5,691 nt of DNA, taken from IMG/VR virus record IMGVR_UViG_648276670_000007, positions 1-5,691 of that record; one strand, given 5' to 3'. The notes under the pieces were generated by a model. The model saw nothing but the letters and a program-made list of their open reading frames with translations, made no database searches and had not been told where the DNA came from. Below, piece after piece: positions 1 to 5,691 of this stretch (its first letter is position 1; each line of letters starts with the position of its first letter). Origin of the DNA: a virus. Its lineage: Duplodnaviria; Heunggongvirae; Uroviricota; Caudoviricetes. The position numbers and the translations under genes were made by a program.

Positions 1-390
1 TTACTCTTTTTTCTCCGTATCTACATCGGGTTCATCAGCAAATAGCTTGCCCTGCATCCGATCCAGTTCTTCTTTTCTTACCCGCTTAACCACGCTGTAG
101 ACCCACTGAAGCGAAACACCAAATTTGCGGGCCAGTTCATGGTGATTACGTCCGTTAAACTCCCTGAAGATTTCCCGGTCGCGCTGACTGACCTTCCATA
201 CCATGCCCATCGGGAAATAAACGTTTTGCCCGCCCCAGACCTGCATCATGCGGTTCGCGACGGCCTGACCAATCTGGTCGGCAATTGCGGGCTCAATATC
301 AATAATCTCGCGAACGGTCTCAGAGGTATGCTGTGCCAGTTCCACCAGGAGTTCCGGCCCTTTACTTCGAAACTGATTCAGGTCGCTCAT
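1..390 (-). CDS. mor: Mor/C-family transcriptional activator (middle operon regulator) of a Mu-like phage, complete 129 aa
   Basis: ATG at 390 with GGAG 6 nt upstream, TAA stop at 1-3. The C-terminal part (YFPMG...RDREIFREFNGRNHHELARKFGVSLQWVYSVVKR) matches the Mor/C family HTH signature as I recall it. Sits immediately after a GemA-like gene, as in Mu. Overlaps the gemA 3' end by 29 nt. Confidence 0.85.
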   Translation of the reverse strand: MSDLNQFRSKGPELLVELAQHTSETVREIIDIEPAIADQIGQAVANRMMQVWGGQNVYFPMGMVWKVSQRDREIFREFNGRNHHELARKFGVSLQWVYSVVKRVRKEELDRMQGKLFADEPDVDTEKKE

Positions 391-814
391 GTTTTACTCC
401 CGCAGCTCTGCGCTGCCACTTCTTCAGTTTCTCAATAACACTGCTTGCCTGTTCAGTATTGAGCCAGCGCAGGGCGCTGATGCCCGTTTCCCGCTTGATC
501 CACCGCGCTAATGCATTTTCTGAACGGTCACGAACAATGCCGGCAGCAGCCATTTCAAGCCATAGCGCACGGATTTTCCTGGATTGCGGATGGTTATCCA
601 GCGGTAAACCGGAGCTGGCTTTTCCTGCAGGCCTAACGCGAAAGCCTTTCCTTTTCATGGATTCCAGCACGCAGTTTAGTTGTGTGGTATCCATTCCTTT
701 GGTTGAGGCTTTACCGGTCAGCCCCTGTAACATCTGGCGGTAGGTGTCTTCATCCATACCCAGTTCATTACGGGCAATATGAATGAGCTGGATAAGACGT
801 TGTTTAGTCATCAT
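362..814 (-). CDS. gemA: GemA-like (Mu gp16, DUF1018) regulatory protein
   Basis: N-terminal TKQRLIQLIHIARNELGMDEDTYRQML resembles the GemA/gp16 family signature. Start chosen at ATG 814 because AAGGAG lies 5 nt upstream; the longest ORF starts at ATG 853 but has no SD. TAA stop at 362-364. Confidence 0.75.
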   Translation of the reverse strand: MMTKQRLIQLIHIARNELGMDEDTYRQMLQGLTGKASTKGMDTTQLNCVLESMKRKGFRVRPAGKASSGLPLDNHPQSRKIRALWLEMAAAGIVRDRSENALARWIKRETGISALRWLNTEQASSVIEKLKKWQRRAAGVKHERPESVSK

Positions 815-1019
815 CGTTGCTCCTTCTGCCTGCATCACCGATATAATCGACATATAAAGGAAGTGCCACAGGCCAGCACAGGAACATCACCGACCAGCTA
901 ATCCAGTAACCGGCACCACTGTAACGTGAATAAAACCCTGAACGGCGGTGCAGTTCAGCAGTACACCAACCGACAAAACAATACCAGAACAGGGCACATA
1001 CAACAGATTCAGTCGTCAT
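804..1019 (-). CDS. small hydrophobic (probable membrane) protein, about 71 aa
   Basis: Internal ATG at 1019 of the 804-1175 ORF, chosen because the longer form would overlap the neighbouring ORF by about 167 nt. Two hydrophobic segments (VVCALFWYCFVGW, YWISWSVMFLCWPVALPL) and an acidic C-terminus. A G-rich tract lies 9 nt upstream. Start is uncertain. Confidence 0.35.
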   Translation of the reverse strand: MTTESVVCALFWYCFVGWCTAELHRRSGFYSRYSGAGYWISWSVMFLCWPVALPLYVDYIGDAGRRSNDDD

Positions 1020-1239
1020 TCTGAATATCCCCCCAACTGATATGAATATTACGGGCAGCAATGACAGGGTCTTTATTCCACCATGCACCTGACATGTATT
1101 TTTCAACCTGTTCGCGTCCGGCAATAACACCAATTGTGATCCCCGGCCTGACGTTCTTAAAAAAGGCGCGGGCAAAAAGGTATCTGGCAGATATTCGGCA
1201 GGCTTTTAATTTCCGGCTGTTACCTGATAACGTAATCAT
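1009..1239 (-). CDS. hypothetical protein, 76 aa
   Basis: ATG at 1239 overlaps the TGA of the upstream gene (ATGA coupling), with GGAGG 4 nt upstream. No recognisable family. Confidence 0.4.
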   Translation of the reverse strand: MITLSGNSRKLKACRISARYLFARAFFKNVRPGITIGVIAGREQVEKYMSGAWWNKDPVIAARNIHISWGDIQNDD

Positions 1240-1919
1240 CTGGCCTCCAGTTTCTGCTGTTCCCGCCCACTGACCGGTCGGTGCAGTCTGACGTTCTGCC
1301 CTTCTCGAAACCCCGCATAGCGCGAGGCGTCGCCATTGCGACTTCTTCCCGGTTTACGCGCCCTGGTGGTTTGCGTCTGCGGGTATTTATGTTCCAGCCA
1401 CTGCTGCATCAGTTCACGTTCGTCATCGGTCAGGGCGAAGGACTGTATTTCACTGATAACGGCCAGCACCCAGCCTTCAGCAAACTGGTCTCCACGGCTG
1501 GTGCGGGTGGCGGTTTTTATTCTTTTGTTCTGTGCACTGATATACTGCTGACGCGCCTTTTTCAGCTGACGGGCCAGCACTTCCCAGGTGTACGCGGCCA
1601 GTGCGGCCCGTTCCCGGTTGCCGTAGAACCCCACACCCGGATATGTGCCGGGGTGAATGATGGAGTTAACACCAAATGCCTCGCGGATGATGTTCATCAG
1701 GCCCAGCATGTAGCGCGGCGGACGGAGGCTGCCTGTCGGCCAGTAGTGACTGATGGTTTCATCAATATCACTCATGGCGATGTCGGAATGTGTGATGCCG
1801 TGAACATCCATCAGTTTACGGGCGCGGCGCAGTGCCAGAGCAGCCTCATGCGGGTTGCCGGATGCTGCCAGCGCCAGCAACTTTTTCAGTTTCTCAATGT
1901 GCTTATCCTGGTCTGTCAT
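1236..1919 (-). CDS. DUF2786-like phage protein, 227 aa, with a basic Arg-rich C-terminal tail
   Basis: N-terminal HIEKLKKLLALAASGNPHEAALALRRARKLMDVHGI resembles the DUF2786 motif as I recall it; unverified. ATG at 1919 overlaps the stop of the upstream small ORF (ATGA). Confidence 0.5.
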   Translation of the reverse strand: MTDQDKHIEKLKKLLALAASGNPHEAALALRRARKLMDVHGITHSDIAMSDIDETISHYWPTGSLRPPRYMLGLMNIIREAFGVNSIIHPGTYPGVGFYGNRERAALAAYTWEVLARQLKKARQQYISAQNKRIKTATRTSRGDQFAEGWVLAVISEIQSFALTDDERELMQQWLEHKYPQTQTTRARKPGRSRNGDASRYAGFREGQNVRLHRPVSGREQQKLEAR

Positions 1920-2116
1920 TGTTCAGTATCTCCGGTATTTTTTTGCTGTTCCCATGCCCGAACAGCGTCGGACAGCTCTTTCAGGCTGTATGCTGCTTTA
2001 AGCTTTTCCCATAACCACTGCGTCACCACGTGGGTCAGCAGGGCAACCAGGGCGAATCCGGCGCAGATGCACACGGCTATACCAGTAAGCAGGAAAGCCC
2101 ATACCACAATTTCCAT
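1916..2116 (-). CDS. small single-pass membrane protein, about 66 aa
   Basis: Internal ATG at 2116, 7 nt after the stop of the upstream gene; the longer 1916-2353 form would overlap that gene by 230 nt in another frame. One clear TM segment (IVVWAFLLTGIAVCICAGFALVALL) followed by a charged C-terminal helix. Confidence 0.4.
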   Translation of the reverse strand: MEIVVWAFLLTGIAVCICAGFALVALLTHVVTQWLWEKLKAAYSLKELSDAVRAWEQQKNTGDTEQ

Positions 2117-2123
2117 AATGGTG

Positions 2124-2507
2124 TCAGTCACTGGTACCTCCTGTGGTGGTCTGGTCAGGTGCGGCGTGTGTCCTGTGGTATTTCCTGAACCAGTGGTACA
2201 GGGCAGCCAGTTTTCTGTCGATAACTTCAGTTTCCCTGTTGAAGTATTCCTGTGCCTCTTTCTCCTCTTGCGGCGGCAGTTCGCCCGGCCCACACAGGGT
2301 GTTGTAAATCCACGCCATGCCGTTCCTGGCATCACCGGTGGCCCGCCACTCAATCACTGCAGCTTTCATGACGACCAGATTGCGCCCGAAGTACAGGTCC
2401 ACCTCTTCAAATCTCTTGCGCAGGTATTCGTTTTCGTCTTCCAGTACCCGAATACGCTGTGCAGCATCTTCCGGCGTCAGTTGTGGCGTCTGTTCGGTGC
2501 GGTTCAT
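2124..2507 (-). CDS. hypothetical protein, 127 aa, acidic N-terminal region with coiled-coil character
   Basis: ATG at 2507 overlaps the stop of the MazG-like ORF (ATGA). No recognisable family. Confidence 0.55.
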   Translation of the reverse strand: MNRTEQTPQLTPEDAAQRIRVLEDENEYLRKRFEEVDLYFGRNLVVMKAAVIEWRATGDARNGMAWIYNTLCGPGELPPQEEKEAQEYFNRETEVIDRKLAALYHWFRKYHRTHAAPDQTTTGGTSD

Positions 2508-2806
2508 ATGATTTCTCCGGTGTATGTGACGCCCAGCCGTGCGGCAAGGCGTTCCAGTTTTTTCTGTTTGTGGAAGTCAATCAGCCGGTCCATTCCCTGA
2601 AGGCGCAGCTGCTCTGTCATGATTTCCACGTCTGCCAGCTCTGCCGCGAGGTCACTTTCGCTGCCCTGTCCGTTCAGGTTGCGGGCGGCACTGGCCGCCA
2701 GTTCAGCGGCCTCTTCTGTCAGTTTCAGGGCCTGTGCGTCCGGCCCGAAACGCTGCAGGGCCAGACGGTAGAGGGCGGTGCGGGTGAGTTCGGTGTTCCG
2801 TGTCAT
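2504..2806 (-). CDS. MazG-like nucleotide pyrophosphohydrolase domain protein, 100 aa
   Basis: Two acidic helices (LTEEAAELAASAAR and DLAAELADVEIMTEQL) resemble the metal-binding EExxE / ExxD motifs of small all-alpha MazG/HisE-type NTP pyrophosphatases. GAGGG lies 6 nt upstream of ATG 2806. Assignment is from motif recognition only. Confidence 0.5.
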   Translation of the reverse strand: MTRNTELTRTALYRLALQRFGPDAQALKLTEEAAELAASAARNLNGQGSESDLAAELADVEIMTEQLRLQGMDRLIDFHKQKKLERLAARLGVTYTGEII

Positions 2807-2815
2807 GCCGCGCCC

Positions 2816-3088
2816 TCAGTGTTTCCGGTCGACGGTGATGTTCAGGCCGCCTTCTGCAGTGGTTTCCACCCGGTACGGCACCTCGTGCTCTGCCGTGTGG
2901 GTGAGTGTGTTCATCAGTACCTGCAGGGCAGCCTCCTTTCCGTTGGTTGCCACAATGGCCTGCGTGGCCATGCTGATTAGCGCCGTCAGGACGTGCTTCA
3001 CATCGGTGAGGTCGCGGCATTCACACTCGTTGACATAGTGTTCAACAAGAGTTCGGGTGCGCTGTCGTGCTTCCTGTGGGGTAATCAT
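2816..3088 (-). CDS. hypothetical protein, 90 aa
   Basis: ATG at 3088 overlaps the TGA of the zinc-ribbon ORF (ATGA coupling). No recognisable family. Confidence 0.5.
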   Translation of the reverse strand: MITPQEARQRTRTLVEHYVNECECRDLTDVKHVLTALISMATQAIVATNGKEAALQVLMNTLTHTAEHEVPYRVETTAEGGLNITVDRKH

Positions 3089-3279
3089 TGCGCGTCCTCC
3101 CTGTCAGGGCGGGAGAATTCCATGACGGGCACGTCCGCCGAAAAATGCTGGCTGCAGTACGGACAGACCAGGGTGACACGTACTGCAGGTACGTGGTACT
3201 TACCGGACATCACGGCGATGGCGCTGTGAAAACGCAGGGCTGTTATATCCCTCTCGCACTGAATACATTTAAATATCAT
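3085..3279 (-). CDS. small zinc-ribbon protein, 64 aa (CxxC...CxxC)
   Basis: Cys pairs at residues 5/8 and 39/42 (CIQC ... CPYC). AGGAGA SD 8 nt upstream of ATG 3279. First gene after the gam-downstream intergenic region. Confidence 0.55.
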   Translation of the reverse strand: MIFKCIQCERDITALRFHSAIAVMSGKYHVPAVRVTLVCPYCSQHFSADVPVMEFSRPDREDAQ

Positions 3280-3297
3280 AATTTAATTCTCCTCTGT

Positions 3298-3334
3298 TTC
3301 CGGCGTGCAGAAGCCCACGGCGCTGACGCCGGAA
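3298..3334. promoter_or_regulatory. intergenic stem-loop (9-bp perfect stem TTCCGGCGT/ACGCCGGAA, 19-nt loop) between gam and the zinc-ribbon gene
   Basis: Inverted repeat read directly from the sequence. No U-run follows it on either strand, so it is not a canonical intrinsic terminator. It ends 4 nt before the SD of the downstream ORF and is flanked by an AT-rich tract (3335-3370). Confidence 0.4.
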
Positions 3335-3376
3335 TAAAAAAGAAAATGTTTTTATTAAATAATTAACGTGGTGTGT

Positions 3377-3907
3377 TTACTGCACATCCTGCTCAAAAGG
3401 AATTATTGAAAAATCCTCAATATCACTTTTTATGGTAATACCGGGAATATTTTTCACGGCGTCCTTTTCATTCAGGATAGCGTCTTTATTTATTTCCTCC
3501 TTTACACGGATAAAGCGCTCAAGCCCCAGACGTCTCAGTAATTCAATAACATTATCCGCCCCACGGATACTGACTGATGGCGGACGGTTTCGCCACTGCA
3601 CCTCGCCGGTGGTGAGGTTAGCGAACTTCACCTTCCCGTTGCCGGTCAGTTCATCACGGTGTGCCTCACACCATGTCTGAATACCGGACTGCAGTTCGGC
3701 CATGCGTTTTTTCAGGCTCTCGGTGAGCGGGGCATAACGTGCGGTGATATCGCCAATGGCGTCATTCATTTCTGTTTCAGCCCTGACCAGTTCACGGTGT
3801 GCGTCACCGAGCAGTCTGATGCCCTCAATGACCTCTTCACGTGTCCCCGGCACCCAGAGTGCTGCTGCGGCCTTGATACGTTTTGCACCTTTTGTACTTT
3901 TTGCCAT
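3377..3907 (-). CDS. gam: Gam-like host-nuclease inhibitor (Mu Gam family), 176 aa
   Basis: Size, position downstream of B, and motifs (MAKSTKGAKRIKAAAALWVP..., RPPSVSIRG..., GITIKSDIEDFSIIPFEQ) match Mu Gam as I recall it. ATG at 3907, TAA at 3377-3379. Confidence 0.8.
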   Translation of the reverse strand: MAKSTKGAKRIKAAAALWVPGTREEVIEGIRLLGDAHRELVRAETEMNDAIGDITARYAPLTESLKKRMAELQSGIQTWCEAHRDELTGNGKVKFANLTTGEVQWRNRPPSVSIRGADNVIELLRRLGLERFIRVKEEINKDAILNEKDAVKNIPGITIKSDIEDFSIIPFEQDVQ

Positions 3908-3934
3908 TTTTTATGATTTCTCCAGTTGTGCTGA

Positions 3935-4204
3935 TTACCACAAAGATTCCGGCCACACGACGCGACAGCCGTGCAGTTCGAAAACGCCCTGACGGAAATA
4001 TCCCCTGTGGTCATGTCCGGTATACAGATAACAGGCCTTTCCCTGCTCAAGCATGCGCATGCAATGCGCACTCCTGGAAACGCGGATGACAGGTTTGTTA
4101 CCCCTGATGGTGATGCTTTGTACATCCGTGTTCGTCGCCTTAAGCGCCATAATGGCTGACTGCACTTTACTGATTTGCTGGTTGATACCTGTGGTGGATT
4201 TCAT
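3935..4204 (-). CDS. hypothetical protein, 89 aa, in the position of Mu kil/cim
   Basis: ATG at 4204 lies 2 nt after the TAA of the B-like gene; GGGG lies 8 nt upstream. No recognisable family; the positional analogy is the only basis. Confidence 0.5.
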   Translation of the reverse strand: MKSTTGINQQISKVQSAIMALKATNTDVQSITIRGNKPVIRVSRSAHCMRMLEQGKACYLYTGHDHRGYFRQGVFELHGCRVVWPESLW

Positions 4205-4206
4205 TA

Positions 4207-5103
4207 TTAAACCCCTTTGACAACGTCAGCGTTGACCTGTGGAACCCCGATTTCAGCGGCCAGATTCATGGCGGCTATTACCAGGTTACTGACGGCCAGC
4301 GGATACAGCAGGCTGACCATATTTTTACGATGACTTCCCGGATTGCTCAGGCGGGTACGTATGGCATCCACTGCGCTGGCGTCCATAATGTCCGTCAGTT
4401 GTTTACCGGCCCGTTGCAGTTTGAACGTCAGAAATTCTTCAAGGTGATTGTCCAGAGGCAGAAGTTCGACCACCTCACAGCGCTGAACGACTTCGCGGAC
4501 TTCCATGTTGCGTTCAGACAGTTTTGTCGCCAGTTCCGGCTGGCCAATCAGCACGATGGACAGCAGTTTTTTGAAACCGGACTCCAGCTCAAAAAAGCGT
4601 TTGAGGTGTTTCAGTGTCGGAATGGGCAGACTGTGGGCCTCCTCAATCACCAGAACGTGGCTGAACCCCGCCTGGCTGCTGTCTTTCAGGACGCGATGCA
4701 ACTGGCGAAAGCGGGCGTCCTGACTGCGTCTGATGCTTTCCAGTGGCGCGATGGTACTGATAATGGCTTCGGCAATAGCTGCTGCCTTCAGGGTTTTCCC
4801 TTTCACATCGTTGTCTTCCATGGCAATGATGTATGGCTCGATAACAATTACCGGCGCATTCTCGCGGTTGATACGTTCAGTCAGGTCACGGCGCAGCGTG
4901 GATTTACCCGCACCGGACTCACCGATGACGGCCATAAACCCACCATGACGGGCTGTCTGGTACAACGCCTCACGCACGTAGCGAATGTCTGGTGTGGTGA
5001 ACACATCATCAGAACCCTGCATGGCTTCGTCGACGAACGGGTCACGGAAAAGACCAAACGCTTTTTTGGTTGCTGGAAATAACACCTGTTTTTTGAGTAA
5101 CAT
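4207..5103 (-). CDS. AAA+ ATPase, MuB/TniB-like transposition target-capture protein, 298 aa
   Basis: Walker A GESGAGKST at residues 61-69 and Walker B-like hhhhEE (HVLVIEEAH) at about 149-157. GAGGA SD 7 nt upstream of ATG 5103. Followed by kil-position and gam genes, as in Mu. The reading frame stays open for a further 42 codons upstream, up to a TGA at 5230-5232 (see findings). Confidence 0.8.
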   Translation of the reverse strand: MLLKKQVLFPATKKAFGLFRDPFVDEAMQGSDDVFTTPDIRYVREALYQTARHGGFMAVIGESGAGKSTLRRDLTERINRENAPVIVIEPYIIAMEDNDVKGKTLKAAAIAEAIISTIAPLESIRRSQDARFRQLHRVLKDSSQAGFSHVLVIEEAHSLPIPTLKHLKRFFELESGFKKLLSIVLIGQPELATKLSERNMEVREVVQRCEVVELLPLDNHLEEFLTFKLQRAGKQLTDIMDASAVDAIRTRLSNPGSHRKNMVSLLYPLAVSNLVIAAMNLAAEIGVPQVNADVVKGV

Positions 5104-5143
5104 ATTCTCTTCCTCACTGAGGCTCGTTTTATCTGTGGTACCC

Positions 5144-5175
5144 GCTGTACGGGGCGTGGCCGCGCCCTGTACAGC
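5144..5175. repeat. 32-bp GC-rich near-perfect palindrome (GCTGTACGGGGCGTGGCCGCGCCCTGTACAGC)
   Basis: 28 of 32 positions are self-complementary; the 4 mismatches are two T/G pairs that would be G-U wobbles in a plus-strand RNA. Lies 41-72 nt upstream of the B start codon, between B and the IS end. Confidence 0.6.
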
Positions 5176-5227
5176 ATCAAAACTCTTCGCTGTATCAATC
5201 CCCTGACTTTCCAGCCAGGACGCAAGA

Positions 5228-5691
<464 letters not shown>

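Follow-up and report, generated by a model that had tools for sequence, protein, structure and literature searches.

Among the described systems that come closest to the one treated here is Com of phage Mu, a 62-amino-acid (aa) zinc-finger protein that activates the translation of mom. A second is the N-terminal domain of Escherichia coli MqsA (YgiT), a small, beta-rich zinc domain that binds the protein MqsR and spaces its cysteines as CxxC-30-CxxC. Mu further encodes gp6 and gp13, small CxxC...CxxC proteins of its early "semi-essential" region; from ner onward, the long Pe transcript covers the transposition genes and this region, whose function is largely uncharacterized (PMC3820752). The protein that concerns us, which we call ZR, has 64 residues and the cysteine spacing of MqsA, and its gene lies in a window of 5,691 nucleotides (nt), by which we mean the whole stretch of DNA analyzed, namely positions 1 to 5,691 of the IMG/VR virus record IMGVR_UViG_648276670_000007 (Caudoviricetes). 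A BcepMu-like (Mu-type) transposable prophage of Enterobacterales provides the setting: the window is its leftward early operon. Within it, ZR is a real gene under purifying selection and, as judged from gene order across related loci, an autonomous one, fixed at its operon position while the genes downstream vary; the 90-aa gene that follows, p90, is best read from the same comparison as an optional accessory cassette in a hypervariable slot that starts at the ZR stop codon. Both are already catalogued, uncharacterized members of narrow Enterobacterales prophage families. The features on which the argument turns are the following:

3377–3907, minus strand: gam, the gene upstream of ZR (Pfam Phage_Mu_Gam, E 1e-40)
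3333–3348, minus strand: U-tract beside the hairpin, able to extend the stem by pairing with the ZR Shine–Dalgarno (SD) sequence
3300–3332, minus strand: GC-rich hairpin in the gam–ZR spacer, from RNA folding
3288–3294, minus strand: ZR SD (GAGGAG/AGGAGA), 8 nt before the ATG
3085–3279, minus strand: ZR, 64-aa zinc-ribbon gene (open reading frame [ORF]; PHROG 3401; RefSeq WP_000576354.1, "hypothetical protein")
3095–3101, minus strand: p90 SD (GGGAGGA), inside the 3′ end of ZR
3085–3088, minus strand: ATGA, in which the ZR stop and the p90 start overlap, from sequence reading
2816–3088, minus strand: p90, 90-aa gene (ORF; PHROG 3691; RefSeq WP_000632577.1)
2504–2806, minus strand: MazG-like gene of 100 aa after p90 (PHROG 2245, nucleoside triphosphate pyrophosphohydrolase, E 5.7e-34; weak Pfam PRA-PH match)

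ZR resembles the described proteins in part. Like Com, it is a small four-cysteine (C4) protein of a transposable phage, and the Com knuckles KCxxC and CPxCxxH align with those of ZR; however, the cysteine spacing is 16 in Com and 30 in ZR, the net charge is +6 in Com (counted on the Com sequence) and about 0 in ZR, and Com is a late gene overlapping mom, whereas ZR is an early gene between gam and p90. The hhalign probability of 61% for Com has to be set against 57% and 36% for the controls gp6 and gp13 of Mu, and with control scores so near to that of Com, the signal between ZR and Com is that of a generic knuckle motif. We therefore rejected ZR as a Com homologue, for which there was no Pfam match either. 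For P2 Ogr and P4 Delta, the comparison consisted of the Pfam search only, in which no such family appeared among the matches at E ≤ 0.1; the caution of an earlier note on this DNA, that similarity to Com or Ogr is not established, was well placed, with no family of either type at that threshold. MqsA shares the spacing of ZR but scores 9% in hhalign and E 0.34 in Foldseek, and ZR has no helix-turn-helix domain and has gam and p90 as its neighbors. The Mu proteins gp6 and gp13 belong to the same kind of operon but differ in cysteine spacings and operon positions, and their likeness to ZR is limited to the knuckles, with no homology shown; the slot after gam in Mu itself holds gp11 (176 aa), unrelated to ZR. 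The N-terminal zinc ribbon of NrdR and the TFIIS-type ribbons gave scores below significance, and ZR, unlike these, has no ATP-cone or other domain and is not basic. The families that do cover the two proteins in full length, PHROG 3401 for ZR (residues 1–64 of 64, E 1.7e-40) and PHROG 3691 for p90 (1–90 of 90, E 1.3e-54), are their own and carry no functional annotation.

The case for ZR as a gene rests on its conservation. The ORF runs from an ATG to a TGA and carries its cysteines at C5, C8, C39, and C42, and both the ORF and the CxxC-30-CxxC motif are found where the earlier note had placed them. We compared 114 ZR-bearing loci, 28 from species-representative genomes and 80 from IMG/VR together with annotated records. 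The earlier note had named two findings in advance as counting against its proposal, loss of the cysteines in homologues and absence or frameshift of the ORF in related prophages, and neither was seen: in 114 of 114 loci, ZR is intact with all four cysteines, at a spacing of CxxC-(29/30)-CxxC. The cysteines and a CP[HY]C motif are kept in every intact homologue, down to ~26–27% identity, and the matches that do not conform are frameshifted variants of 1–13 member sequences each, against 307 members in the intact cluster. The exact ZR protein of the window occurs on at least 1000 contigs. Three clades gave values of 0.09, 0.17, and 0.22 for the ratio of nonsynonymous to synonymous polymorphism (pN/pS) in the ZR frame, and Photorhabdus gave 0.07 (at a pS of 0.15). 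An ORF on the opposite strand, 3088–3366, was also considered and rejected as a gene, since the pN/pS in its antisense frame, 1.1–1.3, is that of noncoding sequence. The record of Escherichia phage PhiKM (PQ738613) annotates an opposite-strand ORF (6626–6847, plus strand) where ZR lies and omits ZR; going by the reading frames, the annotation is probably wrong and is corrected here.

The position of ZR is as stable as its sequence. In nearly all loci, it is preceded by Gam or by a DUF3164 gene, and these two alternate in one slot, with the 89-aa gene on one side and the pre-ZR spacer on the other (L003, L004, L005, and most of L007–L114, where L numbers denote individual loci); the alternation suggests that Gam and DUF3164 are functional alternatives. 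In eight species of Photorhabdus (L026–L028, L030–L034), the interval of 365–460 nt between the ATPase gene and ZR is devoid of ORFs of 50 aa or longer; these elements have lost the 89-aa gene and gam and keep the transposase, the B ATPase, an intact ZR, a short GemA, and Mor. ZR is absent from Mu and from BcepMu, whose leftward early operon has the same order without it, so that its status as a fixed gene is limited to the enterobacterial branch.

The situation changes at the ZR stop codon. The gene directly after ZR is p90 or a diverged allele of it in 52–53 of the 114 loci and a MazG-like gene, overlapped by ZR, in 39 when assigned by BLAST class, or in 30 when a stricter N-terminal prefix test is applied. 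In ~12 loci, it is an ORF of 67 aa or a membrane ORF of 55 aa; in ~10, eight of them Photorhabdus with GemA and Mor following, the vicinity of the stop has no start of an ORF of 50 aa or longer. The junction is a 4-nt overlap with p90 or p90v in 51 loci and with a MazG-like gene in 30, and in E. coli 21KM1392 and in the KP12 contig, the ATGA joins ZR straight to the MazG-like gene. Furthermore, the ZR proteins of one p90-bearing and one p90-less locus are 98.4% identical, a single residue apart. Counted over ZR-bearing loci, p90 is therefore no obligate companion of ZR, and the earlier note's proposal that it is the partner of ZR is not supported: the downstream gene varies, and ZR can be nearly the same with or without it. 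Of the observation behind that proposal, a stop codon overlapping the next start, the overlap itself is real, but it is not distinctive; among the 11 junctions between intact genes of the operon, nine overlap by 4–29 nt, 4 nt being the length in four cases, so that the ATGA between ZR and p90 singles out nothing. The related view that ZR has the best SD of the cassette proved mistaken, the duplex with the anti-SD being stronger for p90 (−11.1 kcal/mol) and for the 71-aa gene at 1916–2131 (−11.6 kcal/mol) than for ZR (−9.1 kcal/mol). Across junction types, the 3′ end of ZR carries an SD-like GAGG or GGGAGGA.

Gene turnover is concentrated in the interval from ZR to the DUF2786 gene (L009, L071, L107, L023, and others), a hotspot in which p90, MazG-like genes, the 67-aa soluble ORF, the 55-aa membrane ORF, ORFs of 56–62 aa, and proteins of 128–228 aa appear in varied combinations. 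What this adds to the picture is a fixed gene under purifying selection, followed by a hypervariable accessory slot, and with it an indication of which gene to delete first. The prophage is present in about one-ninth of complete E. coli genomes (637 of 5426 match a 601-nt query spanning ZR and p90, window 2800–3400) and has relatives across Enterobacterales; yet, ZR and p90 are still "hypothetical protein" in all sources, save for one generic RPC12/RpoP label on record. The practical gains are modest, and nothing found on ZR and p90 challenges current understanding.

Searches for relatives recovered one narrow ZR family, with 18 matches in a word-indexed search and 15 in an exhaustive HMMER search of 1.84 billion representatives. 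The latter found no annotated distant relative; its matches are members of the ZR family or frameshifted copies, with the exception of one partial match to a 2850-aa protein. No Pfam or NCBIfam family matches ZR above threshold, the weak matches spanning one knuckle each, and PADLOC has nothing for ZR or p90, for which NCBIfam gives only weak subthreshold matches (best E 0.019). In the literature, we found no paper naming the accessions or PHROG identifiers of ZR or p90 and nothing relevant on zinc proteins of Mu-like early regions.

The predicted structure is more informative. The AlphaFold2 model of ZR, built from a four-sequence alignment, has a predicted local distance difference test (pLDDT) score of 86.4 and shows strands at residues 16–25, 30–38, and 45–51, with the second knuckle, C39–C42, between the last two and the first borne by a short N-terminal hairpin (3–4/11–12). 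ZR is thus predicted to be a three-stranded antiparallel C4 zinc ribbon of classic topology, and the earlier note's description of a small zinc-ribbon protein gains support from the C4 pattern and the confident model, zinc binding itself being a prediction. Beyond the zinc site, the conserved positions are core residues, Q44, Y/F46, and a C-terminal [FL]xPxE motif. Hydrophobic residues are frequent in the strands (AIAVM, VPAVRVTLV), and within its 64 residues, ZR has no helix that could cover the sheet. A search of ZR against the sequences of PDB chains gave only a repeat artifact (designed "Ika" proteins) and nonsignificant zinc sites, and Foldseek of the model against viral models (BFVD) gave nothing at E ≤ 1e-3; the best match, to the N-terminal ribbon of a phage NrdR-like protein, is nonsignificant (E 0.03, template modeling [TM] score 0.54). 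ZR is then, by its pattern and modeled fold, a zinc ribbon with no demonstrable membership in a characterized family.

We tentatively favor the reading that ZR is a single zinc-ribbon domain serving the phage as an early factor that works autonomously and binds protein. By analogy with the Pe transcript of Mu, ZR would be transcribed together with the transposition genes from an early promoter, as the first cistron after a conserved post-gam stem-loop able to pair with its SD. The four invariant cysteines would hold zinc and so staple the modeled three-stranded beta-sheet, and the protein would act by binding another protein, sequence-specific binding of RNA or DNA being the less likely mode; its target would be a host or phage factor of transcription, replication–transposition, or host takeover. 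As for p90, the comparison of genomes shows it to be a separate, faster-evolving accessory gene, and the ATGA to be a usual operon junction that marks no two-protein machine. What leads us to propose protein binding is a hydrophobic sheet left uncovered by any helix, together with the neutral to acidic character of the family and the conserved positions outside the zinc site and core. The bare sheet of the model suggests that ZR dimerizes or docks onto a partner, and the charge, 0 for the ZR of the window and spread around a median near 0 in the family (−11 to +3), leans away from direct contact with nucleic acids.

Several points weigh against this proposal. One large clade of ZR is mildly basic (+3, isoelectric point 8.7), and the adjacency of ZR to the conserved stem-loop leaves a role in RNA binding or autoregulation open. 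The early expression of ZR is argued from Mu, and the fixed status of the gene says nothing about which protein would be the target. A bolder version of the protein-binding reading, and one that we consider quite unlikely, has ZR as the founder of a new lineage-specific class of zinc-ribbon effectors needed in every enterobacterial BcepMu-like phage; the protein would use its exposed beta-sheet and conserved C-terminal [FL]xPxE tail to dock onto RNA polymerase, the replisome, ClpX, a defense protein, or another such host machine, and a stem-loop shared with Mu would gate its translation. If true, this would account for the strong purifying selection on ZR even in the gam-less elements of Photorhabdus.

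The stem-loop bears on the main rival explanation. The gam–ZR spacer is 97 nt long (3280–3376) and contains the hairpin at 3300–3332, and ZR and p90 are indeed the first genes after a gam intergenic hairpin, as had been noted before. As RNA, the spacer is predicted to fold at −31.3 kcal/mol (z −3.55), a fold in which the U-tract pairs with the ZR SD. Elements come in the order of an AT-rich block, the U-tract, the GC hairpin, (G/A)AAACAG, and the SD, and the segment of U-tract and hairpin is 80–89% identical between clades, compared with 55–68% for the ZR coding sequences and no relation among the upstream genes. The spacer gave no match to an intrinsic terminator, a sigma-70 promoter, or an Rfam family. 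A similar element, with other stem bases followed by GAAACAG and the SD, stands after gam in Mu (L115, AF083977, 6326–6423), and a nearly identical hairpin stands after DUF3164 in the Mu-like Klebsiella phage Kp4866-3 (L118, 2400–2479), where it is followed by a MazG-like gene and there is no ZR. Conversely, the Serratia (Gam-type), Xenorhabdus, and Photorhabdus loci all have ZR and no stem-loop. With the stem-loop occurring without ZR and ZR without the stem-loop, the two features are independent. Judged from the predicted fold, the stem-loop may gate the translation of whichever gene comes first after it; it may be such a translational gate or else a site of mRNA processing or stability.

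The rival that survives best, though we hold it to be unlikely, is that ZR is a nucleic acid–binding regulator of the Com, Ogr, or NrdR kind, acting on phage RNA or DNA (the stem-loop or a middle or late promoter) and thereby controlling translation or transcription. In its favor, the best fold matches of ZR are NrdR-like N-terminal zinc ribbons, hhalign aligns both ZR knuckles with those of Com, and ZR, a fixed gene upstream of the regulators GemA and Mor, directly follows a conserved stem-loop able to occlude its SD. The Com alignment, however, is matched by that of the control gp6, the Pfam matches include no family of the Com or Ogr type, the charge of the ZR family is centered near 0 and reaches −11, and ZR and the stem-loop each occur without the other. 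We retain protein binding as the preferred mode of action.

The MazG-like genes raise a different alternative, namely that ZR is a zinc-binding subunit or regulator of a small MazG-like nucleotide pyrophosphohydrolase. MazG-like genes are the commonest neighbors of ZR, overlapped directly after it in the 39 loci counted above and following p90 in most others; one locus (L075) encodes an in-frame ZR–MazG fusion of 160 aa, and the second-best fold match in BFVD is a Gordonia phage protein named MazG-like. That match is nonsignificant, however (E 0.03, TM score 0.54), and at least 20 loci have ZR and no MazG-like gene (L009, L012, L023, L071, L084, L095, L096, L107–L110, and the Photorhabdus loci), while Kp4866-3 has the MazG-like gene and no ZR. 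The fusion in L075 goes back to a single extra base, A8 in place of A7 in the run GCAAAAAAATGA, a run that is not conserved at other junctions. On this evidence, we regard a role in MazG function as very doubtful. The run formally contains an A_AAA_AAA slippery heptamer, and we considered a programmed −1 frameshift producing the fusion; as a conserved device, this was rejected, the heptamer being present at only 8 of ~39 direct junctions, and a sequencing error or a sporadic mutation is the more likely origin of the L075 fusion. A second in-frame fusion, of ZR to the next gene in L023, is 133 aa long.

p90 is itself a real gene, its frame having the lowest pN/pS of all six (0.53). With that value against 0.09–0.22 for ZR, it evolves several-fold faster. 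p90 matches no Pfam or NCBIfam model, and its family is narrow and unannotated, being found in Escherichia, Citrobacter, Salmonella, Klebsiella, Morganella, and a few others. The alleles, compared between the window and homologues in L035–L110, are mosaic, with two distinct N-terminal modules (residues ~1–37) on a common C-terminal half, a pattern that indicates recombination within the gene. Four residues, C22, C24, H64, and H90, are invariant between alleles of 41% identity and, by their pattern, could form a second metal site. The model of p90 shows three helices and a beta-hairpin, at a pLDDT of only 64.5, and its fold matches are generic helical ones. That ZR and p90 form a dedicated two-protein module, held at a fixed ratio through translational coupling, is highly improbable: the ATGA overlap, the dominance of the pair in E. 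coli (620 of the 637 matching genomes cover at least 80% of the query), and the possible second metal site would fit it, but p90 is missing after ZR in ~60 of the 114 loci, E. coli 21KM1392 and the KP12 contig included, the ZR sequence is independent of its presence, p90 has its own and stronger SD, overlaps are usual throughout the operon, and the two genes evolve at rates far apart.

The setting of these genes is a single compact operon that occupies the minus strand of the window, as read from ORFs and from Pfam and PHROG profile matches. Apart from the genes given above, it comprises the following, with an IS21-family element at its upstream end:

5314–5691, plus strand: IstA-like N-terminus (NCBIfam transpos_IS21, E 1.1e-33)
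4207–5103, minus strand: AAA/ExeA-type ATPase (B), from the ORF and a profile match
3935–4204, minus strand: 89-aa gene, from the ORF
2124–2507, minus strand: 127-aa gene, from the ORF with PADLOC and PHROG matches
1916–2131, minus strand: 71-aa gene, from the ORF
1236–1919, minus strand: DUF2786/DUF7168 protein gene, from a profile match
downstream end of the operon, minus strand: two small genes, then GemA and Mor

The assignment to the BcepMu-like phages follows from the DDE transposase, the ExeA-type ATPase B, Gam or DUF3164, GemA, and Mor, arranged in one leftward operon at the prophage end. Over positions 1–5227, the window matches, at 100% identity, a prophage of E. coli MS20655, in which Mor is the last gene before the host gene torS and the DDE transposase lies beyond the ATPase, and PhiKM, classified in Bcepmuvirus, is 96.5% identical to the window region. 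Identity with intact prophages ends at 5227, and an IS21-family element starts at 5228, splitting the ExeA/B ATPase gene ~49 codons from its start; the truncated B gene spans 4207–5227 (minus strand), and the intact gene encodes 388 aa. The prophage copy in the window is probably unable to transpose.

A last observation concerns the 127-aa ORF at 2124–2507 (minus strand). It matches the PADLOC model "DpdH" in full length (PDLC02890, E 5e-92) and also aligns with the C-terminal part only of the much longer PHROG profiles 18739 and 250, and it is found in only some of the related prophages.

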